Below are positions 6,127 through 47,582 of a DNA stretch of 64,000 nucleotides, in pieces. The stretch comes from an uncultured bacterium (GTDB lineage Bacteria; Omnitrophota; Gorgyraeia; Duberdicusellales; 4484-171): positions 1,126-65,125 of the forward strand of contig CAJXAF010000001.1 of NCBI GenBank assembly GCA_913050175.1, given 5' to 3'. Position numbers and translations under genes: made by a program. The stretch's first letter is position 1, and each line of letters opens with the position of its first letter. The notes below the pieces were generated by a model, which saw only the letters and a list, made by a program, of their open reading frames with translations, did no database searches and was not told the DNA's origin.

Positions 6127-7057
6127 GAGTTCAAATCCTCGTTTATTCGGTTTAATCGGACATCCAGTCAAACATTCTTTATCTTCTTATATGCATAATG
6201 CAGCTTTTAAAAAGATAGGCCTAAATGCTCACTATTGTTTATTTGACATTGAGGACAGCGAATTGGAAGATTTTTTATTAAAACCGGATAAAATTTTTAA
6301 AGATACTGAAGGAAATAAAATTGCTGCCGGAAAAATTGGTGGCTTTAATGTTACTATTCCTCACAAAGTAAGAGCAAAAGAAATCTTAGAAAATAATTTT
6401 TCAAGCCAAACTGATCTTGCCAACAACTATAGCAATTTAGTCGGAGCCACTAATACTGTTAAACGAACTGCCAGCGGCTTTAGCTGGTATAATACTGATG
6501 CTCCCGGTTTTATCCAGTCTTTAGAGGAAGATTTAGATTTTAAGGCTGAAAGTGAGTTTTCTGTTTTAATAATCGGTTGCGGCGGTGCCGGCAGAGCTGT
6601 AATTTCAGGTTTGTCTTCAGCTTATGAAAATACAAATAAAACAATCTATATTTATGAAATAAATGCTTCAGCGAAAGACCAAGCAAACAAATTTTATGAT
6701 AAGTTTCCCCAAGTAAAAAAAGACTTAAAGTTTATTAATAAGAGTGATTTTTCTGATACAATAAAAAAGTGTAAACTTTTAGTGAATGCGTCTCCTCTGG
6801 GTATGCATGCTGGTGATGGTTCAATTGTCTCTAAAGAGCAACTTTCTAAAGATATTTCTGTTTATGATCTAGTTTATAATCGTCAAACTCAACTCATAAG
6901 TGATGCTAAGGCTTGCGGATGCCGGGCTTCTGGTGGGTTGAACATGCTTCTTTTCCAGGGAGTAAAAGCTTTAAGTCACTGGTTAGGTCAAGATATAGAC
7001 TCAGAAGTGGTAGCGACGATGCGTGAAGTTTTAATTAAAAAAACTAAGGAGTTGTAA
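6116..7057 (+). CDS. aroE: Shikimate dehydrogenase (long form with internal insertion)
   Basis: [31 protein letters not shown]… and [13 protein letters not shown]-binding motif; stop overlaps pilD start (TAATG). Confidence 0.85.
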
Positions 7058-7935
7058 TGATTGATACACTTAGCCTTTCAATGAAGATATTTGCTTTTTT
7101 GTTTGGGTCCTGTATCGGTAGTTTTCTAAATGTCTGTATACATAGGCTTCCCCAGGAGAAGTCTATAATCAAACCACGTTCACACTGTCCTAAGTGTAAT
7201 ACTACAATTAAGTGGTACGACAATATACCGCTGCTCAGTTATTTGCTTTTAGGCGGTAAGTGCAGGAAGTGTTCTGTAAAAATACCGATTCGTTATCCCT
7301 TAGTTGAACTTATTACTAGTATTTTAATCGGTGTACTTTATTTGTTTTTTGGCTGGTCACTATTATGGATTGAATTTTCAGTATTTTTTTCTTTACTCAT
7401 TCTCGTCTCTTTTATTGATATTGATTACCACGCTATACCGGTTTATTTATGTGTAGTTGGTATTGCCATAGGACTTGTTTTTGCCTTCTTTAAAAGTGGA
7501 AGTATTGTTAATATTGTTGTAGATTTTTTAAGAATTTTTAACTTTTCTCAAGCTCAAAATATTACCCGGGCACCTACACCATTTTTTAACTCAACCATAG
7601 GATTGCTCTTTGGTTTAGGTTTCACTTATCTTTTTAAATTATTTGGCGATGTCTTTTTAAGCGTTTATCTAAGCATTAGAAAAAAAGATTCTATTGAAGG
7701 TGAGAAAGAAGCAATGGGTTTAGGTGATGTCGATTTTATGGGCATGGTTGGCGTATTCCTTGGATGGAAGGCGGTGATCCCGGTATTTTTTATTGCGCCT
7801 TTATTTGGAGTAGTCTATTCAGTCTTTGCTCTTATCTTTAAGAAGTCTCATTTAATGCCTTATCTTCCCTATTTATCCTTGTCTACTCTGACAATATTCT
7901 TTTGGGGTGATAAGATTTTGAATTTTTTATTTTAA
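7057..7935 (+). CDS. pilD: Type IV prepilin leader peptidase (A24 family, PilD/GspO-like)
   Basis: N-terminal Cys-rich zinc-binding segment [14 protein letters not shown]…[31 protein letters not shown] and polytopic membrane domain with conserved Asp residues; start overlaps aroE stop. Confidence 0.85.
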
Positions 7936-11622: not shown

Positions 11623-12003
11623 ATGATTAGAAAAATACTTCTTGCTGATGACGATAAAGATACTGTTGATTTCCTAAAGAGGAGTTTAGAAAGAGAAGGT
11701 TTTGAGGTTAGCACTGCCTATGATGGTCTTTTAGCAAAAGAGGCTTTGGATAGTAATGAATTTGACCTTATAATTTTAGATTTGATTATGCCTGAATTCA
11801 ATGGCTGGCAGGTGTTGAGATGGTTAAGGCATGAAAAAAAACTTCTTACTCCGACTATTATACTTTCAGCAAAAGATCAAATAGCTGACATGCAAAAAAG
11901 TTATGATTTAAATGCTGATACTTATTTAATAAAACCAATTGATGTCAGCGATATTATCAGCGCAATAAAGATGTTATCTTCTTTGGGTTTTAAGAATAAT
12001 TAG
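11623..12003 (+). CDS. Stand-alone response-regulator receiver (CheY-like REC) protein
   Basis: ILLADDDKDTVDFLKRSLEREGFEV…DLIILDLIMPEFNGWQVL…SAKDQ…YLIKP: phospho-acceptor Asp pocket and conserved T/K positions; no output domain. Confidence 0.85.
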   Translation: MIRKILLADDDKDTVDFLKRSLEREGFEVSTAYDGLLAKEALDSNEFDLIILDLIMPEFNGWQVLRWLRHEKKLLTPTIILSAKDQIADMQKSYDLNADTYLIKPIDVSDIISAIKMLSSLGFKNN

Positions 12004-13772: not shown

Positions 13773-13808
13773 CAGTAATTTAGAAATATTAATTAAGAGG
13801 ATTCGGTT

Positions 13809-14797
13809 TTGAGAAAATTACTCATAGTTTGCTTGCTGCTTAGCTTAATTGCTTGTAATAGCCAAACCCCCCCAAACAGAAATCCAAACTCAATGTTAGT
13901 AAGGTAGAAAGCATTGGAGCAAAATCAGATGCTGGGGCAGATATTGCTCTCAATGGTATTATTTACGATGAAGGCCAGTCTTTAGCAATAATAAACGGTC
14001 AGATTTACTATCAAGGCGATTTCATAGGTCAGAATCAGATAATTGACATAGCAAGTGATTATGTACGGTTTAAGGCCAAAGATAGTGAGGATCATTCGAT
14101 AGTAAGACTATCTAGTGATCATAAAGAAGTAAGCGACCAGAAGTATTCGAAAGAAAAGTCTGTCAAAAAGGAGGAATCACGCCAATATCTTTTTGCCAAA
14201 GCTAAGCTTATAGATACAGAAGATTATCTTATCTTTATACCTGAGAAAACTAATTTTAACGATACCTATCCTTTAATTGTATTTTTTACTCCTGATGCCG
14301 ACACCAAAGGAACACTAAAGCATTTTAAGGATCTTGCTCAAAAATATAAGTGGCTGCTTTTTATATCTAAAGAGTTTCATATTGGTGTTGATATGGCTAA
14401 GGTAATTACTGATTTAGCTCTAACAATCGAAAGTTTATCAGAGAGCCTTCCAATAGATAAGTCTAAAATAATAGTAAGTGGATTTTCAGCCGGAGCAATG
14501 GGGGCTCATTTTTTTTCTTATGCAGAGCCTAAACTTATCTCAGCAATCATAATTAATAGTGGAACAATTCACCAGGATCTCAAAGGTGTAGTAACAGGTC
14601 ATCCAAAGTCAAAACGAGTAGTTTTCCTGGCGAGTCCGACCGATTATGGATACAAGAGCATGCTAGAGGATAAGCGATTTTTAGACAGCCTTGGTTGGAA
14701 GACTAAATGGATAGAATTTAAAGGTGGCCATAGACTCGCTCCTAAAGATATATATGAGAAGGCTTTTGCCTGGCTAAAAATTCAGTTTAGAGAGTAA
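13809..14797 (+). pseudogene. Lipoprotein α/β-hydrolase (esterase/PHB-depolymerase-like) interrupted by a frameshift at a C7 homopolymer; intact reading would give ~329 aa
   Basis: TTG start 8 nt after SD aagagg gives signal peptide MRKLLIVCLLLSLIAC (lipobox) that stops at 13905-13907. Downstream frame is open from 13862 to 14797 with no ATG until 14393. It encodes GFSAGAMGAH (GxSxG nucleophile elbow) and esterase-like C-terminus. One extra C in the C7 run 13867-13873 fuses both frames. Confidence 0.65.
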
Positions 14798-15809: not shown

Positions 15810-16235
15810 ATGGATAAGGGAATGAACATTATAAGCAAAATTACTAACTGGGTAAAGGCAATCTCTTCTCCGGGTAACTTAAGAAGTATATATGCAAAAT
15901 ATTCTACCCCTGTGTTTTTTCTCTTTGGTTTTTACATCCTTTACTGTTTATGCTTGATGCAGTTTATTATTTCTAAGTATAAATCTGCTGTTAATAATAA
16001 AGAAGCTTTTCTAGTAGTTTTCAAAGCAGCTGTTGGTAATGCCGTAATATTTTCAATTGGGTTAGCTATTTTGAGTTTTTGTCCTCAAACTAAGGCGGCT
16101 TCCCTCTTAAGTAGTTTTTTAGATGAACACTTTCCTTCAGCAATTATGCCCTTTATAATATCCCTAGGATGTATTATAATAGCATTTGTCTGGGCAGGTT
16201 TAACTAAAATCATTTCTACCAATAAAGATAAGTAA
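15810..16235 (+). CDS. Hypothetical polytopic membrane protein
   Basis: 3-4 TM helices, RBS aaaggggg. Confidence 0.45.
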   Translation: MDKGMNIISKITNWVKAISSPGNLRSIYAKYSTPVFFLFGFYILYCLCLMQFIISKYKSAVNNKEAFLVVFKAAVGNAVIFSIGLAILSFCPQTKAASLLSSFLDEHFPSAIMPFIISLGCIIIAFVWAGLTKIISTNKDK

Positions 16236-16267
16236 TATTTATCTTTATTGTAAGGGAATATCAATAT

Positions 16268-16486
16268 ATGACTCTATCAAAGTTAATGACAGTTCTGGGA
16301 TTTCTGGTGATTCTAACCGGGGTTCATAAGCTTTATTGCTCAATTAAGCCTGAGTCTGAGAGATGTTCTGTTTCTCCTGGCGAGGAGCCTTTTGAGGGAG
16401 CGACAGTAAATGAAAAGCTTTACACCTCAGGAGTTCGTTTTATTATATATGGATTTCTTATTCAATTGTTGAGGTTAGTAGTTTAA
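16268..16486 (+). CDS. Small two-TM membrane protein, paralog A
   Basis: …LTGVHKLYCSIKPESE…SGVRFIIYGFLIQLLRLVV; paralogous to ORF 16833..17063. Confidence 0.5.
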   Translation: MTLSKLMTVLGFLVILTGVHKLYCSIKPESERCSVSPGEEPFEGATVNEKLYTSGVRFIIYGFLIQLLRLVV

Positions 16487-16538
16487 ATCATACAAAAAAA
16501 TAGATTTAAGATATATAATTTATGAGGAGGAAGAGATA

Positions 16539-16811
16539 ATGAAATGTTGTCAGTGTAATAGCCCTAAAGTGTCTAACGGGAGAATTTTTAACCAAATAGA
16601 TTATATTGCTCCAGCAGCCTATTTTAGGCCCAATGGTTTAAGGACCTTTGCGATATTAGACACTAATGTTAGGATAAAAAATATTTTTTATAGTTGTTTG
16701 GATTGTGGATTTGTCTGGGGTGAGATTGACCCAGTTAAACTAAAGAAAGTAATAATTGAAAAAGCAACTGATAGCACTAAAGAAAGGCTAGATTTAAACA
16801 AAAAACAATAG
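16539..16811 (+). CDS. Zinc-ribbon small protein
   Basis: MKCCQCNSPK… CLDCGF two Cys pairs; strong RBS gaggaggaag. Confidence 0.5.
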   Translation: MKCCQCNSPKVSNGRIFNQIDYIAPAAYFRPNGLRTFAILDTNVRIKNIFYSCLDCGFVWGEIDPVKLKKVIIEKATDSTKERLDLNKKQ

Positions 16812-16832
16812 TTTAATAATAAAAGGAGGATC

Positions 16833-17063
16833 ATGGACAATGTCATAGATTATTCAACTTACCTTACAATATTGGGTCTTCTTACAACCTTAACAGGTAT
16901 TTATAAGCTACATCACTCAGTTAAAACTAATCCAGCCACTGAAATAACCTATCATGCTAAAGAGCCACATGATGCTGCAATAATCGATTATCATCAAGCA
17001 AGGTCAGGATTACGATTTACTATTTATGGTTTCTTAATACAAATGCTTACGGTAATATTTTAA
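16833..17063 (+). CDS. Small two-TM membrane protein, paralog B
   Basis: …LTGIYKLHHSVKTNP…SGLRFTIYGFLIQMLTVIF; RBS aaaggagg. Confidence 0.5.
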   Translation: MDNVIDYSTYLTILGLLTTLTGIYKLHHSVKTNPATEITYHAKEPHDAAIIDYHQARSGLRFTIYGFLIQMLTVIF

Positions 17064-17116
17064 GTGTTAAGTTATTTATCAGAAGAAAATATACTTCTAG
17101 TAAATTCAAAGTTCAG

Positions 17117-17395
17117 ATGAGATGCAATATTTTTTATCTTATTGCTGGTTTTGCCCTTCTTGTCAGTGCAGCTCTAACTAATTTACCGTCAAAAGAAGTA
17201 ATAAATCTTATAAATCCTGATAATCTATATAGTTTTCTTTCAAGGTTTCTTATGGATTCGGCAAAAACACCTTTAACCTGGGTGGGAATAGTTTTGCTAT
17301 TTTTTAGTTTTCGTGAACCAAAAGCTAAGATAAAAAAAGTAAAACTAGAAGCTAACGACAATCAAGGTAAAGATTTAAATAAATTAAAGACATAA
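17117..17395 (+). CDS. Hypothetical membrane protein
   Basis: Two hydrophobic helices, Lys-rich tail. Confidence 0.4.
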   Translation: MRCNIFYLIAGFALLVSAALTNLPSKEVINLINPDNLYSFLSRFLMDSAKTPLTWVGIVLLFFSFREPKAKIKKVKLEANDNQGKDLNKLKT

Positions 17396-17414
17396 AATAC
17401 TAAGAGGAGTTTTT

Positions 17415-17822
17415 ATGGATGGTTCTAAAAAAAGTGTGATCTTGATTATAATTGCTCTTTTAGTTGCCGGTATAATTGGATTAAGTTTCTATAGATCCCA
17501 GCGAGCTCCGACTATAGCAGTTGAGAAGATCTTAAGCTTTTGGCGCCCAGGTTATCATAATCTTGTTGGGGAGTACTGGCATAAAGATTCACGATATGAG
17601 ACTTTGTATAATGTAAGGCAATATAAAATTCTTAAATCAGAAATTAGAAAAGACCAAGCCAGAGTTATAACTAGAGTTAATTATATTACCGGCCATAAGT
17701 TGAAATTAGAAAATATATTTACCTTTCTCTTGAGCAAATCTAAAGGAAAGTGGAAGGCTTATAGGTACTATAAGGGTTTTAAAGATACTGAGACGAAAAA
17801 CAGAAGGGCCTTCTTGAATTGA
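17415..17822 (+). CDS. Hypothetical N-terminally anchored protein
   Basis: RBS aagaggag; single N-terminal TM. Confidence 0.45.
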   Translation: MDGSKKSVILIIIALLVAGIIGLSFYRSQRAPTIAVEKILSFWRPGYHNLVGEYWHKDSRYETLYNVRQYKILKSEIRKDQARVITRVNYITGHKLKLENIFTFLLSKSKGKWKAYRYYKGFKDTETKNRRAFLN

Positions 17823-27123: not shown

Positions 27124-28359
27124 TTGAGTAATAGTAAAGAGATTAAAATTACGCCTTTTGAATTAACCACTGAGGCAGGAGCTATCAAATTAATGACCTC
27201 CTTAGGCGTGACCAGTCAGGGGATTAAGATTTTAGCTGCTAAGAGCATCTTCTGCGCTTTTTTAATTAAAGGCATAAAATCCTGGGAAGCAAACATCATC
27301 AAGCAGCACCTCTTATCTTTAGGCTCTGATGCTGCAATTGAGCGTGATGCTTTGGTAAAGGATATAAATACAGACATTCTTATTTTTGGTAGCCGAAGCC
27401 AATTGAAACGCTTAAGTAATAAGCTAAAAGGACAGCCCTTTAGCTTAAAAGAAGTATCGAGGTTAATATCCTTATATTTAGAAAATTTGGAAAAAAAAGA
27501 ATTTGTTTTTCTGGCAAGAAAAAAAACCTTAAAAATAAGAAAGCCAATTGTTTGCGGAATAATTAATCTAACTAAAGATTCTTTTTCCGGCGATGGTTTA
27601 TTAGCTAAAGCAACAAGTTCAAGTGAGAAGATAAAGTTTCTGGCTTTAAAGAAAGCCGAACAAATGATAAAAGAAGGTGCTAAGATTCTTGATATTGGGG
27701 CTGAATCTTCGCGACCCTTTGCCAAGCAGCTTAGAGTTAAAGAAGAACTCGCTCAATTGATACCGGTAATTAAAGCAATACGTAAGGAATTTAAGAAAAT
27801 TCCCCTTTCAGTGGATACCTATAAATATCCGGTTGCTTATGAGGCAAGCTGTCTTGGCATTGATATTATAAATGATATAACAGCTTTAAGGCATAACCCT
27901 AAAATAGCCGATATCATAAAAAAGAACTCTTTAGGCTGTATTCTTATGCATATGAAAGGCAGCCCTTTGACTATGCAGCTTAATCCTTACCATAAAGACG
28001 TTGTTTGGGAGATAATTTCTTTTTTTAAAGACAGAATTAACTTTTTGAATAAAAAGGGCATTTCCCAAAACCAAATATGTCTTGATCCGGGAATAGGCTT
28101 TGGTAAAAGGTTAGAAGACAACACAAGGATAATTAACGAGCTTTATAAATTAAAAATTTTCGGTCTACCAATTTTCCTAGGTTTATCACGAAAATCATTT
28201 ATTGGGAAAATTCTTAAAAACAATATAGATCAGCGTCTGGCGGGAACTATAGCAGCCAATGTAGTCTCCATTAATAAGGGAGCAAATATTTTAAGAGTTC
28301 ATGATGTAAAAGAAACAGTCGAAGCTATTAAAATAGCTTCTAGTATTAATTTAAATTGA
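27124..28359 (+). CDS. folP: Dihydropteroate synthase with ~135-aa N-terminal extension
   Basis: Pterin-binding domain starts IVCGIINLTKDSFSGDG…; preceding 135 aa have no recognisable motif. Confidence 0.85.
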   Translation: MSNSKEIKITPFELTTEAGAIKLMTSLGVTSQGIKILAAKSIFCAFLIKGIKSWEANIIKQHLLSLGSDAAIERDALVKDINTDILIFGSRSQLKRLSNKLKGQPFSLKEVSRLISLYLENLEKKEFVFLARKKTLKIRKPIVCGIINLTKDSFSGDGLLAKATSSSEKIKFLALKKAEQMIKEGAKILDIGAESSRPFAKQLRVKEELAQLIPVIKAIRKEFKKIPLSVDTYKYPVAYEASCLGIDIINDITALRHNPKIADIIKKNSLGCILMHMKGSPLTMQLNPYHKDVVWEIISFFKDRINFLNKKGISQNQICLDPGIGFGKRLEDNTRIINELYKLKIFGLPIFLGLSRKSFIGKILKNNIDQRLAGTIAANVVSINKGANILRVHDVKETVEAIKIASSINLN

Positions 28360-29120
28360 TGGATTTTCTTGCTCGACCCATAAATTGGAAAGATATAGTT
28401 GAAGTAATAATTCTCTGGATTGTTATCTACCGTATTTTTCTTTTTTTAAAAGGAACAAAAGCTATCTATTTACTCCGGGGCATTGTTTTTCTAGTTGTAG
28501 CTTTGTTAGGTTTTCAACTATTTGATTTTCCGGTTTTAACCAGGTTACTCACATACTTTTTTGCTTTTTTTATTATTTTGGTTACAATAATTTTTCAACC
28601 CGAACTTAGAGACGGTCTTATCCATTTAGGTAAACGTCATATATTTTATATTGAGCCAAAAAAAGAGGAAATTGAGAAAACCTTGCGGGAAATAGTCTCA
28701 GTAGCAGGAGTCCTTTCCCGAAAAAAAATCGGTGCCCTTATCGCCATTCAAAGAGAGATACCGCTTAAAAGATATATTGAGAGCGGCGTAATATTAAATG
28801 CTGATATTAGCGCAGAATTGCTTCAGAGTATATTTTATCCCGGAGCCACCCTGCATGATGGAGGAGTTGTAGTAACCGGTAGAAGCATTATCGCCACTTC
28901 TTGTCTTTTCCCTTTAAGTGAGAATCCTGCTCTGGAAAGAGCTTTAGGTATGCGTCACCGGGCAGCTGTTGGTTTATCTGAACATTCGGATGCCTTGGTA
29001 ATAATTGTATCTGAGGAAAATGGTTCAGTTTCTTTAGCTATTAACGGACAATTGACTCGTAACTTAGCACCCAATGACTTACTTACAATACTAAAAGGGC
29101 AGTTGTCTAAACCACGTTAA
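28356..29120 (+). CDS. cdaA: Diadenylate cyclase CdaA (membrane-anchored DAC domain, c-di-AMP synthase)
   Basis: Three N-terminal TM helices then DAC motifs GALIAIQRE…HDGGVVV…RHRAAVGLSE. Confidence 0.88.
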   Translation: MMDFLARPINWKDIVEVIILWIVIYRIFLFLKGTKAIYLLRGIVFLVVALLGFQLFDFPVLTRLLTYFFAFFIILVTIIFQPELRDGLIHLGKRHIFYIEPKKEEIEKTLREIVSVAGVLSRKKIGALIAIQREIPLKRYIESGVILNADISAELLQSIFYPGATLHDGGVVVTGRSIIATSCLFPLSENPALERALGMRHRAAVGLSEHSDALVIIVSEENGSVSLAINGQLTRNLAPNDLLTILKGQLSKPR

Positions 29121-32674: not shown

Positions 32675-33025
32675 ATGCAAGAAGAACGCCGGGAAAAAAT
32701 CAGGATAGAGGAATCTTTAACTGTTAGACATTCACCCGCTAAAAGTCTCTTTATTAGTTCATCTGAGACTAAGAATATTTCAAGCGGCGGCCTGTGTTTT
32801 CCTGCTTTGCAGAGACTGGAACCGGAAATGGCCCTGGATCTTGATATTGATTTACCGGGTTTTAAAGAACCCATTAAAGCTGAGGCTAAAGTAATCTGGC
32901 TATCTGAAATAAGTGATATTAATCACCGTTATGATGTAGGGGTGCAATTTGCAAAGATAAGTTCTACCGACCACAGTAAAATACTCCACTATATTTCCAG
33001 CAAATTCGATAATTTAAATATGTAA
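32675..33025 (+). CDS. PilZ-domain protein
   Basis: RREKIR, NISSGGL, AKVIWL. Confidence 0.8.
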   Translation: MQEERREKIRIEESLTVRHSPAKSLFISSSETKNISSGGLCFPALQRLEPEMALDLDIDLPGFKEPIKAEAKVIWLSEISDINHRYDVGVQFAKISSTDHSKILHYISSKFDNLNM

Positions 33026-33080
33026 CCTGGAAAAATATCGTCTTATATCTACATTTCAGATAGTTTTTTAACTTTATATC

Positions 33081-33527
33081 ATGAAGAGTAATTTTATTAA
33101 AATAGCTAAAAAGGTTCTCCTAACTGTACTTTTTGTTTTCTTCCTACCGTATCTTGCTTATTGTTCATATGCCAGCGATATATTTAAGGAATTGACTACA
33201 GCTATAAGAGAGGATGCTATCAAGGTGGAATTAAAGGCTTTAGAAGCAAAATACCTTGATAAACGTATTGAGGGTAAAGGCTACATAAAAAGCATAACTC
33301 ATGATCTTAAGGAGAGAGTAGTTCTTACTGTTTCTACCCTTGAAGATGTCAATGACGTTGAATCGGTTAGTGTAGTTATATATTTACGTAAGTACACTGC
33401 CCGAACAATATCACGATTCAAGGTTGGTGATAAGATACGTCTTTTTGGTGATTTTAAGGGTATTCGAATGAAGACCATAGTTGTAGAAGAAACTATTATT
33501 AAACCGCATTATCAAGATATAAAATAA
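33081..33527 (+). CDS. Hypothetical secreted protein
   Basis: N-terminal signal/TM (VLLTVLFVFFLPYLAYCSYA). Confidence 0.45.
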   Translation: MKSNFIKIAKKVLLTVLFVFFLPYLAYCSYASDIFKELTTAIREDAIKVELKALEAKYLDKRIEGKGYIKSITHDLKERVVLTVSTLEDVNDVESVSVVIYLRKYTARTISRFKVGDKIRLFGDFKGIRMKTIVVEETIIKPHYQDIK

Positions 33528-33822
33528 AGCTTTAAGATAATTTTACTTGATTCCTTAGTAAAGGATGAATTTTTCTCTTAATTTCTAATTCTTCTTTTTA
33601 TCTGGGTTTAAAAATAATATTTTTAAAAGAAAACGTTTTCAGTAGTGATTTTGATACTTTTTTTGTAAAAACCTCTCTGTTTCCTTGAAATCGAAGGATA
33701 AATATGGTATATATTCTAGACGGGGGTTTAAATTTATTGCAAAAAGTAGTAAATTAAGCCTCTTTTTATTTAATAGGCCTTAAAAATGGCAGGATATGCA
33801 TTGAACTAATAAGGGAGGCCCA

Positions 33823-34134
33823 GTGCATAATGAATCATTTGGACATCGTAGATCTTCTAAAAGAAGAGCATGTTTTTTAGCTGCTGGGTATTTATTGTTT
33901 GATAAAGCTCCTTACCTTGCAAAATACCATGATATTAATCTTGATGGTATAGGAGCAATAGTTGATAAACCTTTACCGGTTAATATACAGGTTAAAATAG
34001 CTCTCAATACAAAAAAGAAAGGTTTGGTTTTAGTTAAGGGCAAAGTATGTTGGTGTAAAAAAGCCCAGCTTGGCTGGCGCTTAGGAATATCTTTTAACCG
34101 TAAGCTATCGTATGAAACTACTATGATTGCTTAG
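33823..34134 (+). CDS. PilZ-domain protein (divergent)
   Basis: RRSSKRR (RxxxR), DINLDGIG (DxSxxG with S→N), GKVCWC; SD agggaggcc. Confidence 0.65.
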   Translation: MHNESFGHRRSSKRRACFLAAGYLLFDKAPYLAKYHDINLDGIGAIVDKPLPVNIQVKIALNTKKKGLVLVKGKVCWCKKAQLGWRLGISFNRKLSYETTMIA

Positions 34135-34137
34135 GTA

Positions 34138-34503
34138 TTGCTTTATAAAAATGGCTTTTTAAAAGATAAGGCTATTATGATTCAAAGAAGAAAACAAAAA
34201 AGAGTTAAAATATCATTTCCAATTGAGTGCGATTGCCTGTCTCACCGTAACTATTTCTGCTCAGTCAGCAGGGATTTGAGTTTAACCGGGATACAAACCG
34301 TAAATAATAGTTTTATACCTAAAGATAGCATAGTAAAGATCAATATTAACCTTATTGATAGATTTGTAAGCTTAAAAGCTAATGTTATCTGGAGCATAAA
34401 AAAGAGAGCCTCAGAAAGATATTCTACTGGTCTAGAGTTTATTGAAACAACTCAGGCCCATAAGAGGCATATCACTCACTTCCTACACAACCTCACTGCT
34501 TAA
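34138..34503 (+). CDS. PilZ-domain protein
   Basis: RRKQKR, DLSLTGI, ANVIWS; true start may be Met at 34177 (MIQRRKQKR). Confidence 0.75.
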   Translation: MLYKNGFLKDKAIMIQRRKQKRVKISFPIECDCLSHRNYFCSVSRDLSLTGIQTVNNSFIPKDSIVKININLIDRFVSLKANVIWSIKKRASERYSTGLEFIETTQAHKRHITHFLHNLTA

Positions 34504-34678
34504 TTAAATCTTACTGATTTACTTAAAAAACTCCTATAAACACTGCAAAATCATTCTTTACACCTATTCTAAAAGCGGTTATAATAATTGGAAATCCATA
34601 GAATTTTGAGTAGGTCTAGCCTTAATTATTGCAATAACTTGCATAAGATTATAGGTATAAAGCCCTACCCTATTTATT

Positions 34679-34754
34679 CGGGAGGTGGCCCAGTCTGGAT
34701 TAGGGCACTTGAATGGGGTTCAAGGGGTCGCGGGTTCAAATCCCGCTCTCCCGA
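34679..34754 (+). tRNA. tRNA-Pro (anticodon GGG)
   Basis: Acceptor CGGGAGG/TCTCCCG, D-arm GCCCAGTCTGGATTAGGGC, anticodon stem CTTGA/TCAAG with loop ATGGGGT, T-arm GCGGGTTCAAATCCCGC. Confidence 0.8.
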
Positions 34755-34809
34755 TTTAATAATTGTTGTAAATTTAGTATTAAACATATAGCGTGGCGAG
34801 GAGGTCAGA

Positions 34810-35178
34810 ATGAATGAATATGGTGGTTCAGAGAGAAGAGGGCATCCGCGAGTTGATGTAAATTTTGTTGTAAGTTACAGGATTCAAGAAACAGCTCACG
34901 ATTACGATCTTTCTCAAACAAAAAATTTAAGTCAAGGCGGTATGCTTCTTACAACAAATAAAAAATTTACTCAAGGTACATGTTTATCTATGATTTTACG
35001 TTTTCCCTTGATACCACAGAAAATCGAAGTTACTGGAATAATTGTAGATTCTAAAGAAGTAGTAAGAGACATTATCTATGAAACAAGAATACAGTTTCTG
35101 GATTTGGATAAAGAATTTTTCTATAAATTAGGTGAGTTTATCAAGGATAATTTGAAGGATGACCTAAAGAATGATTAA
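34810..35178 (+). CDS. PilZ-domain protein (overlaps hom start by 8 nt)
   Basis: RRGHPR, NLSQGGM; SD ggcgaggagg; stop TAA inside ATGATTAA of hom. Confidence 0.8.
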   Translation: MNEYGGSERRGHPRVDVNFVVSYRIQETAHDYDLSQTKNLSQGGMLLTTNKKFTQGTCLSMILRFPLIPQKIEVTGIIVDSKEVVRDIIYETRIQFLDLDKEFFYKLGEFIKDNLKDDLKND

Positions 35179-36445
35179 AAAAATTGGCATCATTGGTTTA
35201 GGTCATGTTGGCACTTCGGTTGTCGAATCACTTAAAAAATATTCAAGCCTGATCAGAGAACGTTCTTCTTTGTCTTTAAAGATAAAGAAAGTTTGTGATG
35301 CTAATAAATCAAGAAGAAACTTTGCTAAGAAGCTCGGTGTCCCTTTTACGACTGACTACAATGATCTAACCAATGATCCGGAAATTGATATCATAGTGGA
35401 GTTGATAGGAGGCATTGAACCTGCCAATTCTATTATTTTATCAGCTTTGAATAAGGGCAAAAGCGTTGTAACAGCTAATAAAGCTTTACTTGCAACTAAG
35501 GGTAAGAAGATCTTTGCTTTAGCCCAGAAAAACCGAAAACGTGTCGGCTTTGAAGCTTCAGTCTGCGGAGCCATACCTTTGATAAAGAGCACTAGTGAAG
35601 GCTTGGTCTGTTGTGACGTAAAAAAAATATACGGAATACTTAATGGCACAACAAATTATATTCTCTATAAAATGCAAAGAGAAAATATTGATTTTGCCTC
35701 TTCTTTAAATGAGGCTCAAGTTCAAGGTTATGCTGAAAAAAAGGCAGATTTAGATATAAACGGCGTAGATTCTTTGCACAAATTATGTATTTTAAGTTAC
35801 TTATGTTATGGTATCTGGCCTTCTCTGGATAAAGTTTATGCTGAAGGCATTTCTAAGATTTCTTTGTTGGATATTGCCTACGCTAAAGATTTAGGATACC
35901 AAATAAAATTATTATCCATAGCCAAAAAGGAAAAAGGTTCATTGGATATAAGAGTACACCCAACCCTGATTCCCATTGATCATCCTTTAAGTCAGGTGGC
36001 GCTTGCCTTTAATGCTGTTTATTTTGACACTAAGCCAGCCGGTGATCTGCTTTTTTATGGTCAGGGAGCTGGAGGCGTAGCAACATCTTCTTCAGTTATC
36101 TCTGATATTGTCAGTATAGCTTCAGGCCATAAAGGGTTCATTAGAAGCCAGGGCAAAGCTAAGATAAAAAATATTGCCGATATAAAGACCAGATACTATA
36201 TCCGATGCATGGTTATGGATTCTCCGGGAGTTTTAGCCAAGATTTCAAAAATTCTTGCCAGTTATAAGATTAGCATAGCCTCAGTTAATCAAAAAGAGAG
36301 AAGAGAAGGTAAATTTGTCCCTATTGTTATGCAGACACACCAGGCAAAAGAAAGTAATATGCAAAAAGCCATTAATAACATAAACAGGTTAAAGGTTATT
36401 AAAAGCCCTTTACAGATAATTCGCATTGAGGATCTACCCAGCTAA
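35171..36445 (+). CDS. hom: Homoserine dehydrogenase
   Basis: MIKKIGIIGLGHVGTSV NAD-binding start, catalytic domain, C-terminal ACT domain (…MVMDSPGVLAKISKILA…). Confidence 0.92.
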   Translation: MIKKIGIIGLGHVGTSVVESLKKYSSLIRERSSLSLKIKKVCDANKSRRNFAKKLGVPFTTDYNDLTNDPEIDIIVELIGGIEPANSIILSALNKGKSVVTANKALLATKGKKIFALAQKNRKRVGFEASVCGAIPLIKSTSEGLVCCDVKKIYGILNGTTNYILYKMQRENIDFASSLNEAQVQGYAEKKADLDINGVDSLHKLCILSYLCYGIWPSLDKVYAEGISKISLLDIAYAKDLGYQIKLLSIAKKEKGSLDIRVHPTLIPIDHPLSQVALAFNAVYFDTKPAGDLLFYGQGAGGVATSSSVISDIVSIASGHKGFIRSQGKAKIKNIADIKTRYYIRCMVMDSPGVLAKISKILASYKISIASVNQKERREGKFVPIVMQTHQAKESNMQKAINNINRLKVIKSPLQIIRIEDLPS

Positions 36446-41344: not shown

Positions 41345-41519
41345 TATTGGGCGAAAAGGCAAAACGCCTGAAAAGGCGTTACGGCACACCAGATTTTTAG
41401 TGTGCCCTCATATTTTATATGAGGCAAAACTTAAGAACCTAAGGTCGAAAAGACTAAGGCAGTCAGTTATCGAATCATTTCTTCTTACTACCTATGGTCT
41501 TATGCTATAGGTTTTTTTA
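41345..41519 (+). ncRNA. Candidate structured small RNA / leader with intrinsic terminator (no ORF)
   Basis: Consecutive hairpins: cgcct-GAAA-aggcg (GNRA tetraloop, 41365-41378), ggcacac/gtgtgcc 7-bp stem (41383-41406), cctcata/tatgagg 7-bp stem (41406-41424). Terminal hairpin cctatgg…ctatagg + T8 (41491-41519). Possible promoter ttgaaa-17-tataca at 41287-41315. Confidence 0.35.
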
Positions 41520-41627
41520 TTTCCAGGGGCTTATTTAAGTTAAGATAAGTTTGTGGCTTATATAAATTTAGTTTACCGGTGGTTTTCTCAAAGAGAGGTC
41601 AAAATGAGTAAAAACGGAGGTGACAAA

Positions 41628-41987
41628 ATGAAGCGTATAATTTTTGGTCTACTAATTATGCTTTTAAGCTTTCCTTTGCTGACTATGGCTGATGAGCACC
41701 AAGTGAGACAAGCAGACCCGGCAAGTAAACTCGCCTATGGTATAACAGAAGTTGCTTTTAGCTGGACTGAGATACCACAGTCAATTTACTACTATTCCAA
41801 GAAACATGATCCGATCAGTGGACTTTTTCTAGGTGTGGCCGAGGGTACTGTTTTAGGTCTTAGAGATGTGGTTGAAGGTACAATTGATACAACCTTCTTT
41901 TTGTTGCCACCATATAAGACTAAAGGAAAAAGCTTTTTTGAGAAATTAAAAGATTGGGATGATAACGTATCCGATCATCTTTGGTAA
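41628..41987 (+). CDS. Hypothetical secreted protein
   Basis: Start chosen at ATG 41628 (SD ggagg 7 nt upstream) giving signal peptide MKRIIFGLLIMLLSFPLLTMA; track start (GTG 41553) lies inside the terminator of the upstream RNA. Confidence 0.5.
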   Translation: MKRIIFGLLIMLLSFPLLTMADEHQVRQADPASKLAYGITEVAFSWTEIPQSIYYYSKKHDPISGLFLGVAEGTVLGLRDVVEGTIDTTFFLLPPYKTKGKSFFEKLKDWDDNVSDHLW

Positions 41988-44247: not shown

Positions 44248-44910
44248 TTATGTTCTGGTAATTGTTTTTGCCAGAGTTAATACAGAAACACTTCCTGCTT
44301 GTTTTTCCTTTAGGGCCATGCTGGCGAAATATGCGGTTGATCCGGTTGTAAAAATATCGTCTATTAGGAGTACTCTTTGCCCCTTTAATGATTTTGTTGC
44401 CAGGAAAGCACCTTTTACATTTTCTTTTCTCTGAGAAAAAGATAGCCTGGTTTGAGAGGGCTTATTTATTATAAGTCGTATTATATCATTGCCAAGAGGT
44501 ATTTTAAACTGTTTTGACAACAATTGGGCCAGCAGCTGGGATTGGTTATAACCCCTTGATTTTAGCTTATAGGCGTGCATGGGTACAGAAACTATCAAAT
44601 CATAATTTAGAAAATTAAACTTTATTTTACTAAGATGGCTAACCATTATCTTGGTAAAGAAGCCAGCTAGAAAATCGTATTTTTTATACTTAAAAAACCC
44701 TATTAAATCTATGAGTGGTTGTTTGTAGGCTGTAGTGCTTATGACTAAATCGTAGGGGAAAGATATGCTTGAACATTTTCGACAAATTTTCTGCCTGTTT
44801 AACTTAAGTGGCTTTGAACAAAACTTACATAGGGGAGGATAGAGAAAGTATATTTTTTTAAAACAATCTGGGCAGAGAGGTTTGCTTTTAGCTTTTCTAT
44901 CACAAATCAA
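44248..44910 (-). CDS. comF: ComF-family protein (zinc ribbon + phosphoribosyltransferase domain)
   Basis: N-terminal CPDC…C…C zinc ribbon and C-terminal PRTase motif VLLIDDIFTTGSTA. Confidence 0.8.
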   Translation of the reverse strand: MICDRKAKSKPLCPDCFKKIYFLYPPLCKFCSKPLKLNRQKICRKCSSISFPYDLVISTTAYKQPLIDLIGFFKYKKYDFLAGFFTKIMVSHLSKIKFNFLNYDLIVSVPMHAYKLKSRGYNQSQLLAQLLSKQFKIPLGNDIIRLIINKPSQTRLSFSQRKENVKGAFLATKSLKGQRVLLIDDIFTTGSTAYFASMALKEKQAGSVSVLTLAKTITRT

Positions 44911-45175: not shown

Positions 45176-45424
45176 ATGGCAAGTCAAAGCAATAACCATA
45201 ACAATAAAATGATTTCTGCCAGAGATATCATGACCCAGTATGACGTTACCTATCAAACTGTTAACCACTATACAGATTTTGGCCTTCTTACAGTCAAAGC
45301 AAAAAGAGGAAATGTCAGATTTTACGATAAGATTCTAGTTAAAGAACGGATGCAGAAAATAAGGCTTTTTATTGAAGAGGGGTACTCTCTTCGTCTAATA
45401 CGTAAGAAATTAATTGGAATTTAA
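45176..45424 (+). CDS. Small MerR/excisionase-like HTH DNA-binding protein
   Basis: 82 aa; ISARDIMTQYDVTYQTVNHYTDFGLL…RGNVRFYD resembles MerR-superfamily/Xis-type winged HTH. Confidence 0.5.
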   Translation: MASQSNNHNNKMISARDIMTQYDVTYQTVNHYTDFGLLTVKAKRGNVRFYDKILVKERMQKIRLFIEEGYSLRLIRKKLIGI

Positions 45425-45450
45425 GGGCTTTTTAAAAAAGAGAGTGGAAG

Positions 45451-46332
45451 ATGAGTTATTTTAAAATTTTAGGATTTGAAAAGGAACCATTTTCAACTAG
45501 TCCGGACCCTGATTTTTTATATTTAGCCAAGGATCACGATACAGTTTTAATGAACACCTTAATTGAGTTGCGTTTGCGCCGGGGCTTAAGCGTGATTTTA
45601 GGTGATGTCGGTACAGGCAAGACTACCCTTTCCCGTAAACTCATTCAAGAGCTTAAAGACAGAGAAGATTTTATCTTTCACATGGTTTTAGATCCATCTT
45701 TTTCAGATGAGCATTCCTTCCTTGATTATTTAGCCAGGAGTCTTGATATACCAACTCAAGGCCTATCGTCAGCTGTAGCCTTAAGAGATACTTTAGAAAA
45801 ATATTTATTCCAAAAAGGGGTAATTGAAGGCAAGATTGTTGTTTTGATAATAGATGAGGCCCAGAAATTAAACGAAACATCTTTAGAGATGTTAAGGGTT
45901 CTGTTTAATTATGAGACTAATGAATTTAAGTTAATTCAAATAGTTCTCCTAGGACAGCTGGAACTACACTCAAAGATTATTGATATTGCTAATTTTTTTG
46001 ATCGGATAAGCTTTAAATACACACTCAATCCTTTAAGTAAGGAAGAGACTAAGGAGATGATTGAGTTTCGAATCAAAAAAGCAGGTTATAAATCAAGCAT
46101 GCACTTATTTTTGGATGAAGCCATCAGCGAAGTTTATCAGGCCAGTAAGGGTTATCCCCGACGCATAACTATGCTTTGCCATAGGTTGCTCAAAGAGCTT
46201 ATTTTAAAAAACAAGGTTGTTGTCGATGCCAACTTTGTAAAAAGCATTATTCGTAAAGATATTCAATCTGGTTGGCACCACGATGATGCTTTAAATAGGG
46301 AACAGGCCTTGGTTTATCAATTTCAAAGATGA
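45451..46332 (+). CDS. ExeA/TniB-like AAA+ ATPase (type II secretion GspA / MshM-like, ATPase domain only)
   Basis: Walker A LGDVGTGKTTLSRKL, Walker B VVLIIDEAQKL, sensor region; ~290 aa typical of ExeA N-domain. Confidence 0.7.
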   Translation: MSYFKILGFEKEPFSTSPDPDFLYLAKDHDTVLMNTLIELRLRRGLSVILGDVGTGKTTLSRKLIQELKDREDFIFHMVLDPSFSDEHSFLDYLARSLDIPTQGLSSAVALRDTLEKYLFQKGVIEGKIVVLIIDEAQKLNETSLEMLRVLFNYETNEFKLIQIVLLGQLELHSKIIDIANFFDRISFKYTLNPLSKEETKEMIEFRIKKAGYKSSMHLFLDEAISEVYQASKGYPRRITMLCHRLLKELILKNKVVVDANFVKSIIRKDIQSGWHHDDALNREQALVYQFQR

Positions 46333-46466: not shown

Positions 46467-46841
46467 ATGCGTACCGTACTGATAATTGATGATGAAGAAG
46501 ATTTAACATTTTTTGTAAAAGCAAACCTTGAATTATCGGGAGAGTACAAGGTAATAATTGCCAATAATGGCAGGGATGGCATCAAAGCGGCCGAACACCT
46601 TAAGCCTGATGTTGTTCTTTTAGACATCATGATGCCTCAGATGGATGGCCTTGAAGTTTTAGCTAAATTAAAAAAATCAATTAAAACACTATCCATTCCC
46701 GTAGTTATGCTTTCAGCTAAGGGAGATGATGAGTCTAAGGTTTATGCTGCCAGCTCTTATAACGAAGACTACATTGTAAAGCCAGTACAGATTGAATTTT
46801 TAAAAGAAAAGCTAGATCAAGTCTTAGGCTTGAGAGAATAG
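46467..46841 (+). CDS. Stand-alone response-regulator receiver (CheY-like)
   Basis: MRTVLIIDDEEDLTFFVKANLELSGEYKV…DVVLLDIMMPQMDGLEVL…LSAKGD; start set at ATG 46467 after SD aaaggagg. Confidence 0.85.
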   Translation: MRTVLIIDDEEDLTFFVKANLELSGEYKVIIANNGRDGIKAAEHLKPDVVLLDIMMPQMDGLEVLAKLKKSIKTLSIPVVMLSAKGDDESKVYAASSYNEDYIVKPVQIEFLKEKLDQVLGLRE

Positions 46842-47243: not shown

Positions 47244-47582
47244 ATGCAAGCTATTTTTTCCTGGACCATACTTTTTACTTACTCTTTTTTTATCATTGTT
47301 CTTTCTTTTATGCCGATCAGGGCCCCTGAGGTCGTTATTATCCCTTTTTTAGATAAGATTATTCATACCTTTGCTTATATGCTACTTTCTTTTTTAACTG
47401 TAAATACTCTCTGTAAAAAGAGAAAAGCCCGGCCCCGGCTGATTAGCTTTTCTTATGCCTTTTTATTAGGATTTGCAATTGAGATAATTCAGCATTTTTT
47501 GCCTTATAGAGCCTTCGAAGCAGGAGATATTTTTTCAAATTCTTTAGGAGGTTCTCTAGGGTTATTTTTAAGAGCAGTATAG
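47244..47582 (+). CDS. VanZ-like family membrane protein
   Basis: Four TM helices with VanZ-type motif (…FLDKIIHTFAYMLLSF…GFAIEIIQHFLPYRAFEAGDIFSNSLG…). Confidence 0.7.
   Translation: MQAIFSWTILFTYSFFIIVLSFMPIRAPEVVIIPFLDKIIHTFAYMLLSFLTVNTLCKKRKARPRLISFSYAFLLGFAIEIIQHFLPYRAFEAGDIFSNSLGGSLGLFLRAV

Follow-up and report, generated by a model that had tools for sequence, protein, structure and literature searches.

We analysed a 64-kb stretch of chromosome from an uncultivated bacterium of the phylum Candidatus Omnitrophota (hereafter the window, meaning the whole stretch) and found that it carries seven short genes, each encoding a stand-alone PilZ domain. In the reading that we favour, with a probability of about 0.7, the seven proteins would work as cyclic di-GMP (c-di-GMP)-dependent adaptors, two of them coupled to a phospho-relay. 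The genes lie on the plus strand and are named below by their first coordinate (12043, 19128, 32675, 33823, 34138, 34810, and 46864; Table 1), and related loci and contigs carry numbers with the prefix L.

All seven proteins pass the gathering score of the Pfam PilZ family PF07238 (22.5 bits) with 33-54 bits and E-values of 8e-08 to 1.9e-14; the match spans nearly the full length of each protein (103-122 amino acids, aa) and no other Pfam domain is found in them. A hidden Markov model (HMM) built from the seven proteins and run with filters off against all open reading frames (ORFs) of at least 40 aa in six frames of the window recovered exactly those seven, the next match having an E-value of 0.32, and their profile also matches PilZ proteins of the PDB. 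An earlier note on this DNA had counted seven short PilZ proteins in 64 kb, four of them within 2.5 kb flanking a tRNA-Pro gene, and had named a profile search and an alignment of the binding residues as checks. The count and the arrangement are borne out (three of the four genes lie upstream of the tRNA gene and one downstream), the profile search recognises all seven as PilZ, and the conserved binding residues do align and are conserved in the orthologues of four copies. The RxxxR arm, usually RRxxxR, is canonical in six of the seven, the exception being 12043 (RRRFIH). The (D/N)xSxxG motif, which follows about 28-30 residues further on, is canonical in five, the exceptions being 19128 (NIAGGG) and 33823 (DINLDG). 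Each protein keeps at least one intact motif and four (32675, 34138, 34810, and 46864) keep both, so the full signature that the earlier note had given to every copy holds for these four and not for the other three; in the same way the G-x-V-x-W strand described for all seven lacks its Trp in 34810.

The binding motifs are also conserved across genomes. A search with the seven-protein profile yielded 499 single-domain proteins. Orthologue assignment covers the best 120 of these 499 matches, among which 102 are orthologues of 34810, 10 of 46864, six of 34138, and four of 12043; none of 19128, 32675, or 33823 appears among these best 120. The 102 orthologues of 34810 show 45-78% identity (median 64%). 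In them R10, R14, G43, and G44 are invariant, the Asn/Asp position is always Asn or Asp, S41 is present in 98 of 102, and many other positions are invariant as well. Both motifs are also kept in the groups of 34138 (44-53% identity) and 46864 (40-57% identity), while the 12043 group (50-57% identity) has the canonical Arg: three orthologues carry RRRFIR or RRRFLR. Because the orthologues hold this Arg, the R-to-H change of 12043 is specific to this organism, and 12043 may on its residues be a naturally weakened receptor. The fold was checked on 34810 alone among the seven. An AlphaFold2 (AF2) model built on the 102-sequence alignment (pLDDT 72.9, pTM 0.63) shows a six-stranded beta-barrel with a C-terminal helix, and the top 30 or more Foldseek matches of this model in the PDB are all PilZ domains at probability 1.00 and TM-scores of about 0.6-0.7. 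The matches are c-di-GMP-bound PilZ proteins, namely MotI (5vx6), BcsA (4p00), Alg44 (4rt1), PA0012 (8u0i), and YcgR (5y6g), and also MrkH and VCA0042. These results establish the family membership, the motif conservation, the orthology, and the fold. If the window proteins work as their relatives do, c-di-GMP would be held between the RxxxR arm at the N terminus and the barrel strand that carries (D/N)xSxxG; the arm would close over the ligand, and the protein would gain or lose affinity for a specific partner. Each paralogue would form a separate output channel of one second messenger, and the channels of 12043 and 46864 would be wired to single-domain response regulators and would integrate phosphorylation with c-di-GMP.

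The two presumed response regulators are stand-alone receiver (REC) proteins, as the earlier note had recognised: PF00072 matches them with 92 and 85 bits, and their genes lie 39 and 22 nt upstream of 12043 and 46864, respectively. On reading, both sequences contain the acidic pocket, the phospho-acceptor Asp, and the Ser and Lys residues. The pairing recurs in other genomes. The 12043-type pair is found behind the same upstream genes (aroC, TraB/GumN, and Zn-ribbon), in the order Zn-ribbon, REC, PilZ, in another Omnitrophota metagenome-assembled genome (MAG; L100), which makes the adjacency two out of two, and a REC gene adjoins the 46864-type PilZ in four of the five genomes examined. In L018 (CP070807.1) and L101 the 46864 orthologue is followed by REC and then by a VanZ gene; in L019 a PAS-GAF-HisKA-HATPase kinase and a closely similar REC lie upstream of it and VanZ downstream; in L102 the gene behind it is a VanZ/AMP-binding fusion, with no REC visible there. 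VanZ thus stands behind the PilZ gene, or behind the PilZ-REC pair, in all four of these relatives. REC adjacency is restricted to the 12043 and 46864 orthologous groups. The suggestion that the REC partners serve as phospho-inputs therefore gains from the recurrence, the partnership being more than coincidence, and the two REC-PilZ pairs probably combine c-di-GMP with the input of a phospho-relay. The VanZ and acyl-AMP ligase neighbours are hints of an envelope-related output of the 46864 module.

Some further genes were seen in relatives and in the window. The fusion of L102 (685-2595), which comes immediately behind the PilZ gene, consists of a VanZ domain and an AMP-binding acyl ligase, and L021 (721-2211) encodes a 496-aa fusion protein of AMIN, coiled-coil, and PilZ parts. 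In the window the REC-PilZ pair 46467/46864 is immediately preceded by a MerR-family regulator and an AAA_22 ATPase (45176-46332). The latter is similar to the XrtA/PEP-CTERM-system ATPase (TIGR03015, 188 bits, under the cut-off), and the adjacency of these two genes to the pair is not conserved in L018, L019, and L101.

The 34810 group has the widest distribution and a conserved gene order. The order gpsA ... tRNA-Pro, PilZ, hom, thrC, argS, recJ is common to three other Omnitrophota genomes, including the complete CP070684.1 and CP070807.1, and tRNA-Pro is found upstream of the hom-linked PilZ in L015, L016, and L017. Through the 34810 family we fetched 80 further metagenome loci, of which 76 extend far enough downstream; in 56 of these 76 (74%) the start of hom is no more than a few bases from the stop of the 34810-type PilZ and often overlaps it, and in the window the end of 34810 overlaps the start of hom by 8 nt. 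In L072, L079, L080, and L087 the 34810-type gene is found inside an operon that runs MshEN-T2SSE ATPase, T2SSF, pilin, PilZ, three N-methyl pilin-like genes, and a PilX/Ig protein. In L046 smc and ftsY flank the gene, and in L071 and L084 a tail-specific protease is its neighbour. In a neighbour-joining tree the pilus-linked clade is nested within the hom-linked sequences, the resolution being low for such a short protein. Since the neighbourhood is not constant, the gene context of 34810 points to no single partner. A functional link between PilZ and hom, for which the 8-nt overlap and the 74% adjacency could be cited, was not adopted, the same family being found in the pilus, smc/ftsY, and protease contexts elsewhere. 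We regard the 34810 group as a widely conserved Omnitrophota receptor for which c-di-GMP binding is predicted, and the best lead to its partner is the type IV pilus or type II secretion-like machinery, a tentative lead that we hold at low odds. A still wider proposal is that the 34810-type protein is a core c-di-GMP receptor gating a type IV pilus/type II secretion-like filament by which these cells, small and probably dependent on a host, would attach to other cells or attack them and that, at the same time, the dense paralogues (eight in about 74 kb, two of them REC-wired) make up a many-channel local network in a small genome; taken as a whole this is unlikely. The MshEN domain of the pilus-operon ATPase is another potential c-di-GMP sensor.

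The window proteins share features with several known systems. They resemble MapZ (PA4608) and DgrA in having about 110-125 aa, one PilZ barrel plus a C-terminal helix, canonical motifs, and no other domain, and c-di-GMP-dependent partner binding is presumed for them likewise; but no orthology is detectable past the family-level match, and whereas MapZ binds the methyltransferase CheR1, no chemotaxis or flagellar gene lies near the window PilZ genes. Fused PilZ-REC proteins exist. Unlike in such proteins (for example PixA of Myxococcus), the REC is separate here and the order flips between genomes, REC-PilZ in some and PilZ-REC in others. The coupling of a PilZ protein to a receiver domain also recalls HapZ (PA2799) and the receiver of SagS, where HapZ inhibits SagS-to-HptB phosphotransfer (PMC10333796); in the present case the REC gene is 22-39 nt away, the pairing recurs, and a kinase is found upstream once, but the coupling is suggested by conserved adjacency alone and the REC is a separate single-domain protein, not part of a hybrid kinase. 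The 34810-type proteins share with PilZ proper (PA2960/XAC1133), a type IV pilus assembly factor whose solved structures are matched by the profile of the seven at E ~1e-3, the small single-domain form and, in one clade, the location in a PilB-like/PilC-like/pilin operon, but in PA2960-type proteins the c-di-GMP motifs are missing and the ligand is not bound, whereas the Omnitrophota 34810 family keeps both motifs essentially invariant. The best structural and sequence match in the PDB is to the C-terminal PilZ domain of MotI/DgrA (YpfA) of Bacillus subtilis and of YcgR. Both carry a further domain (PilZN/YcgR-N) at the N terminus and target the flagellar motor, unlike the single-domain window proteins: Pfam finds no YcgR-N domain in the seven short proteins and the window has no flagellar gene. 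The label "YcgR" that JGI gives to some orthologues is an over-annotation. Within the same phylum, small pilZ genes, one or several in a row, lie by the giant genes of Omnitrophota and have been discussed as c-di-GMP sensors (West-Roberts et al., bioRxiv 10.1101/2023.11.21.568195); in contrast, the window is without a giant gene or GGDEF protein, and the contexts here are hom-thrC-argS, REC genes, and VanZ.

The earlier note had seen no GGDEF, EAL, or HD-GYP gene in the window, and this is confirmed. No window ORF of at least 50 aa has a GG[DE]EF or EAL motif; tblastn probes for GGDEF, EAL, and HD-GYP against the window gave a best E-value of 0.18, the GGDEF and EAL probes being approximate and these searches crude checks, while the HD-GYP probe, as a positive control, matches four related loci. 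The larger ORFs of the window all belong to other families (ilv, leu, aro, arg, dap, and lys genes, ftsH, tilS, folP, cdaA, pdxJ, gpsA, hom, thrC, argS, recJ, lptFG, and others). HD-GYP-type genes are found in relatives: one in L038 (3795-4755) abuts an extra PilZ gene at the variable interval between gpsA and hom described below, and a PAS-HD-GYP gene in L018 (1-853) lies 9 kb upstream of the 46864 orthologue. Giant proteins of Omnitrophota are reported to include GGDEF domains, and one or several small pilZ genes stand behind most of the giant genes (West-Roberts et al., bioRxiv 10.1101/2023.11.21.568195).

Consistent with a use of c-di-GMP in the lineage, a c-di-GMP-I (GEMM-I) riboswitch aptamer was found in the window (Table 1). 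Its score stands just at the threshold because its first hairpin carries a 55-nt insertion. The relatives L050, L044, L039, and L036 have aptamers of 71.5, 71.3, 65.7, and 40.8 bits, respectively, in the corresponding place, which comes after recJ and rpmB and is some 6.5 kb downstream of the PilZ gene linked to hom. In the minimum-free-energy fold the 5' arm of the terminator-like hairpin that follows pairs with the 3' half of the aptamer (z = -3.8), and this hairpin is kept in L039, L044, and L050. The next gene encodes a TIGR04073-family protein, whose homologues behind the strong riboswitches score 91-94 bits. The aptamer is 78 nt upstream of the ORF start at 41553 and 130 nt upstream of an internal ATG at 41604, which is probably the true start. 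The whole unit of riboswitch, hairpin able to pair with the aptamer, and TIGR04073-family gene is present in L036, L039, L044, and L050 too, and because it is syntenic in these four relatives the riboswitch of the window is a genuine, divergent orthologue. A literature search for "TIGR04073" found nothing, and an RsaH match near the riboswitch was dismissed at 23 bits against a gathering score of 50. The syntenic riboswitch, the HD-GYP genes of relatives, and the reported GGDEF domains are together evidence that c-di-GMP signalling is live in this lineage.

Several points weigh against the adaptor reading. A ligand-contacting position is altered in three of the seven proteins (R to H in 12043, S to A in 19128, and S to N in 33823), and these three may show weak binding or none; the window has no diguanylate cyclase gene, and the approximate GGDEF probe found none in the related loci probed; the neighbourhood of the 34810 family varies (hom in 74%, and pilus, smc/ftsY, or tail-specific protease genes in other clades), and the hom linkage may be mere inherited synteny. 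Homology and gene order are the basis for the predicted ligand binding, the adaptor mechanism, and the proposed partners. The altered residues lead to a competing explanation, in which several copies are degenerate PilZ proteins that do not bind c-di-GMP and act as ligand-independent scaffolds in the manner of the original PilZ protein of Pseudomonas and Xanthomonas, which bridges FimX and PilB; the true receptors would then be fewer than seven. Degeneracy would fit the His of 12043, whose orthologues keep Arg, the NxAxxG of 19128, and the DxNxxG of 33823, the last of which is also the weakest Pfam match (33 bits), has no C-terminal helix, and has no detectable orthologue; moreover, the seven-protein profile also matches the non-binding Xanthomonas PilZ structures 3dsg and 3cnr. 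Against it, the other motif and the invariant Gly are intact in every deviant copy, both motifs are missing from the classical non-binding PilZ proteins (general knowledge; PMC10333796), and four copies in the window and an eighth outside it are fully canonical. We consider loss of binding in several copies a serious possibility of distinctly less than even odds.

The seven proteins are 19-31% identical in pairwise comparison, and because identity is this low they are old paralogues and not recent tandem duplicates; recent tandem duplication was rejected on this ground, and we read the genes from their sequences as ancient paralogues kept under selection. The "expansion" of the earlier note therefore stands as a high count and density, and not as a recent amplification. 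The same figure, 19-31% for the four genes around tRNA-Pro, speaks against a second explanation, that these four form a horizontally acquired, tRNA-inserted island or a recent lineage-specific tandem amplification. It is true that the content of the gpsA-to-hom interval varies (one to three PilZ genes in related loci, four here), that insertions in the interval of L015 comprise a radical-SAM gene, small ORFs, and an SNF transporter, and that some relatives have a tandem second hom-linked PilZ gene at 37-50% identity. But a repeat scan of the cluster gave short imperfect direct or inverted matches only, with no duplication scars or att-like sequences and no repeat of the tRNA-Pro 3' end beyond other tRNA genes; of the genes called between gpsA and hom on the public contig, none was recognised as integrase-like; the G+C content of the PilZ cluster (33-35%) is like that of the remainder; and three other genomes share the syntenic arrangement of tRNA-Pro, PilZ, and hom, which is ancestral, while 34138 has a positional orthologue in L015. 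On the grounds of the short imperfect repeats, the want of a recognised integrase-like gene, and the uniform composition, a tRNA-linked mobile island was rejected; the tRNA-Pro neighbourhood is a conserved syntenic block of tRNA-Pro, PilZ, and hom, and the second explanation as a whole is very improbable.

The gpsA-to-hom interval is a variable PilZ hot spot. In 33 unique loci of at least 8 kb, most have one PilZ gene per locus and the others two or three, so the four in this interval of the window exceed the whole-locus count of any of the 33 relatives. The extra genes of the relatives differ in type, being tandem copies of the hom-linked gene, opposite-strand 12043-like genes, or, in L015, the 34138 orthologue. 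An eighth PilZ gene follows on the same 82-kb contig, some 5.5 kb after the end of the window (L103, 16217-16621); it encodes 134 aa with canonical RRKSKR and DLSEGG motifs, has PF07238 on the public record, and scores 42.4 bits with the HMM built here. It is flanked by an RRM-domain gene and a MatE transporter gene. With this copy the density is about one PilZ gene per 9 kb over 74 kb. A further explanation is that such density is ordinary, small PilZ genes being abundant across Omnitrophota and the window a typical sample. It agrees with the 499 single-domain profile matches, all named ones of which are from Omnitrophota, with the small pilZ genes behind most giant genes (West-Roberts et al.), and with the eighth copy so soon past the window. 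In 544 kb of related loci we counted 13 PilZ genes beyond the bait gene of each locus, or about one per 42 kb, which can be read as abundance; at this rate, however, only about 1.5 copies beyond the central one would be expected in 64 kb, whereas the window has six (Poisson P ~0.005), in addition to the four genes in an interval where the maximum per whole locus is three. We put this explanation somewhat short of even odds. An exceptionally PilZ-rich genome is likely; for comparison, a recent survey gives twelve PilZ proteins for the whole genome of Leptospira interrogans (PMC12943098). If the density held genome-wide, the load per megabase would be among the highest known.

The earlier note had remarked that so many stand-alone receptors would be unusual outside predatory or surface-associated lineages, which fits the present organism, since Omnitrophota have been proposed as a host-dependent or predatory phylum. 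These bacteria are abundant and uncultivated, they are regarded as dependents or predators of other microbes, and the regulation of this lifestyle is almost unstudied. Concrete handles are offered by a PilZ family conserved in more than 100 Omnitrophota sequences with an intact predicted ligand site, by the two conserved REC-PilZ pairs, and by the syntenic riboswitch ahead of the gene for a small secreted TIGR04073-family protein; with these, c-di-GMP signalling in the phylum becomes testable with purified proteins and RNA, without culture. That small pilZ genes occur in Omnitrophota is already known, having been noted in passing (bioRxiv 10.1101/2023.11.21.568195); the present work adds an orthologous group that is widely conserved and fixed in its synteny, two REC-PilZ modules that are likewise conserved, a PilZ hot spot of variable content, and a riboswitch in syntenic position. 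The proteins represent no new receptor type or mechanism and are diverged members of a well-known family. To a c-di-GMP specialist the density in a small candidate-phylum genome will be noteworthy and not surprising.

Table 1. Features of the window and of one related locus (coordinates in the window unless a locus is named).
Feature	Position	Strand	Remarks
Prepilin peptidase	7057-7935		A24_N_bact and Peptidase_A24 domain matches
Stand-alone REC response regulator	11623-12003	+	PF00072
PilZ, 122 aa	12043-12411	+	PF07238 48 bits; RRRFIH; DISQEG canonical
PilZ, 117 aa	19128-19481	+	PF07238 49.5 bits; RRHFPR canonical; NIAGGG, Ser to Ala
PilZ, 116 aa	32675-33025	+	PF07238 52.8 bits; RREKIR and NISSGG canonical; first gene after gpsA
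Membrane-anchored OB-fold (tRNA_anti-like) protein, 148 aa, not PilZ	33081-33527	+	PF12869 22.6 bits, just under cut-off
PilZ, 103 aa, shortest and most divergent	33823-34134	+	PF07238 33 bits; RRSSKR canonical; DINLDG, Ser to Asn
PilZ, 121 aa from TTG 34138 or 108 aa from ATG 34177	34138-34503	+	PF07238 48.6 bits; RRKQKR and DLSLTG canonical
tRNA-Pro (GGG)	34678-34755	+	ARAGORN and Rfam
PilZ, 122 aa	34810-35178	+	PF07238 39.6 bits; RRGHPR, NLSQGG; Trp of G-x-V-x-W absent
hom, homoserine dehydrogenase	35171-36445	+	Pfam families on public contigs and synteny; followed by thrC, argS, recJ
c-di-GMP-I (GEMM-I) riboswitch aptamer	41348-41474	+	RF01051 35.1 bits, gathering score 35.0; marginal
Terminator-like hairpin and T-run, riboswitch expression platform	41490-41518	+	Read from sequence
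Small secreted TIGR04073 (exosortase-system-associated) family protein	41553-41987	+	47.4 bits, cut-off 50; BLASTP E = 2e-16
ComF-like phosphoribosyltransferase	44248-44910		
Stand-alone REC response regulator	46467-46841	+	PF00072; ATG start behind AAGGAGG
PilZ, 117 aa	46864-47217	+	PF07238 54.2 bits; RRKYVR, DVSMSG; conserved C-terminal helix ending KWW
VanZ-like membrane protein	47244-47582	+	PF04892 41.9 bits; conserved neighbour of 46864-type PilZ
Type IV pilus-like operon with 34810-type PilZ	L072 5920-13000		

Within the cluster, 32675 has a weak positional counterpart in L015 (31% identity). The GTG start of 33823 is preceded by a strong AAGGGAGG ribosome-binding site, and public gene calls take the ATG start for 34138. 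The ORF at 34588-34791 overlaps tRNA-Pro and was rejected as spurious. A promoter and terminator scan of the PilZ cluster gave counts equal to those of shuffled sequences and was thus uninformative on operon structure. In a tRNA cluster upstream of gpsA on a related Omnitrophota contig, a group I intron was seen (L029 7130-7443; RF00028, 86.8 bits).

The window belongs to the core chromosome of a marine, uncultivated member of Candidatus Omnitrophota. Proteins identical to those of the window are encoded on contigs of marine metagenomes (Tara Oceans and others) up to 82 kb long, and its ArgS is 56-70% identical to homologues whose named sources are all Candidatus Omnitrophica/Omnitrophota MAGs. 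The G+C content is uniform across the window at 33-39%. Of its 82 ORFs, 78 are on the plus strand and the GC skew is positive in every 2-kb bin; the whole window appears to lie on one leading-strand replichore. A prepilin peptidase and a ComF-like gene (Table 1) indicate that the genome has a type IV filament system, while no pilus ATPase or pilin gene was found in the window. The window also contains a CdaA-type diadenylate cyclase gene (DAC and CdaA_N domains; 28356-29120), from which it follows that the organism also uses c-di-AMP; in L017 this gene is likewise conserved beside folP and pdxJ. At 13773-14797 a 620-nt ORF-free stretch is followed by a 134-aa ORF that matches positions 93-142 only of the 217 of the Abhydrolase_2 profile, and this region may be a gene remnant. 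A series of small membrane or zinc-ribbon ORFs without family assignment occupies 15810-17822, and two similar proteins of about 75 aa (16268-16486 and 16833-17063) are each followed by a short Cys-rich or membrane ORF.

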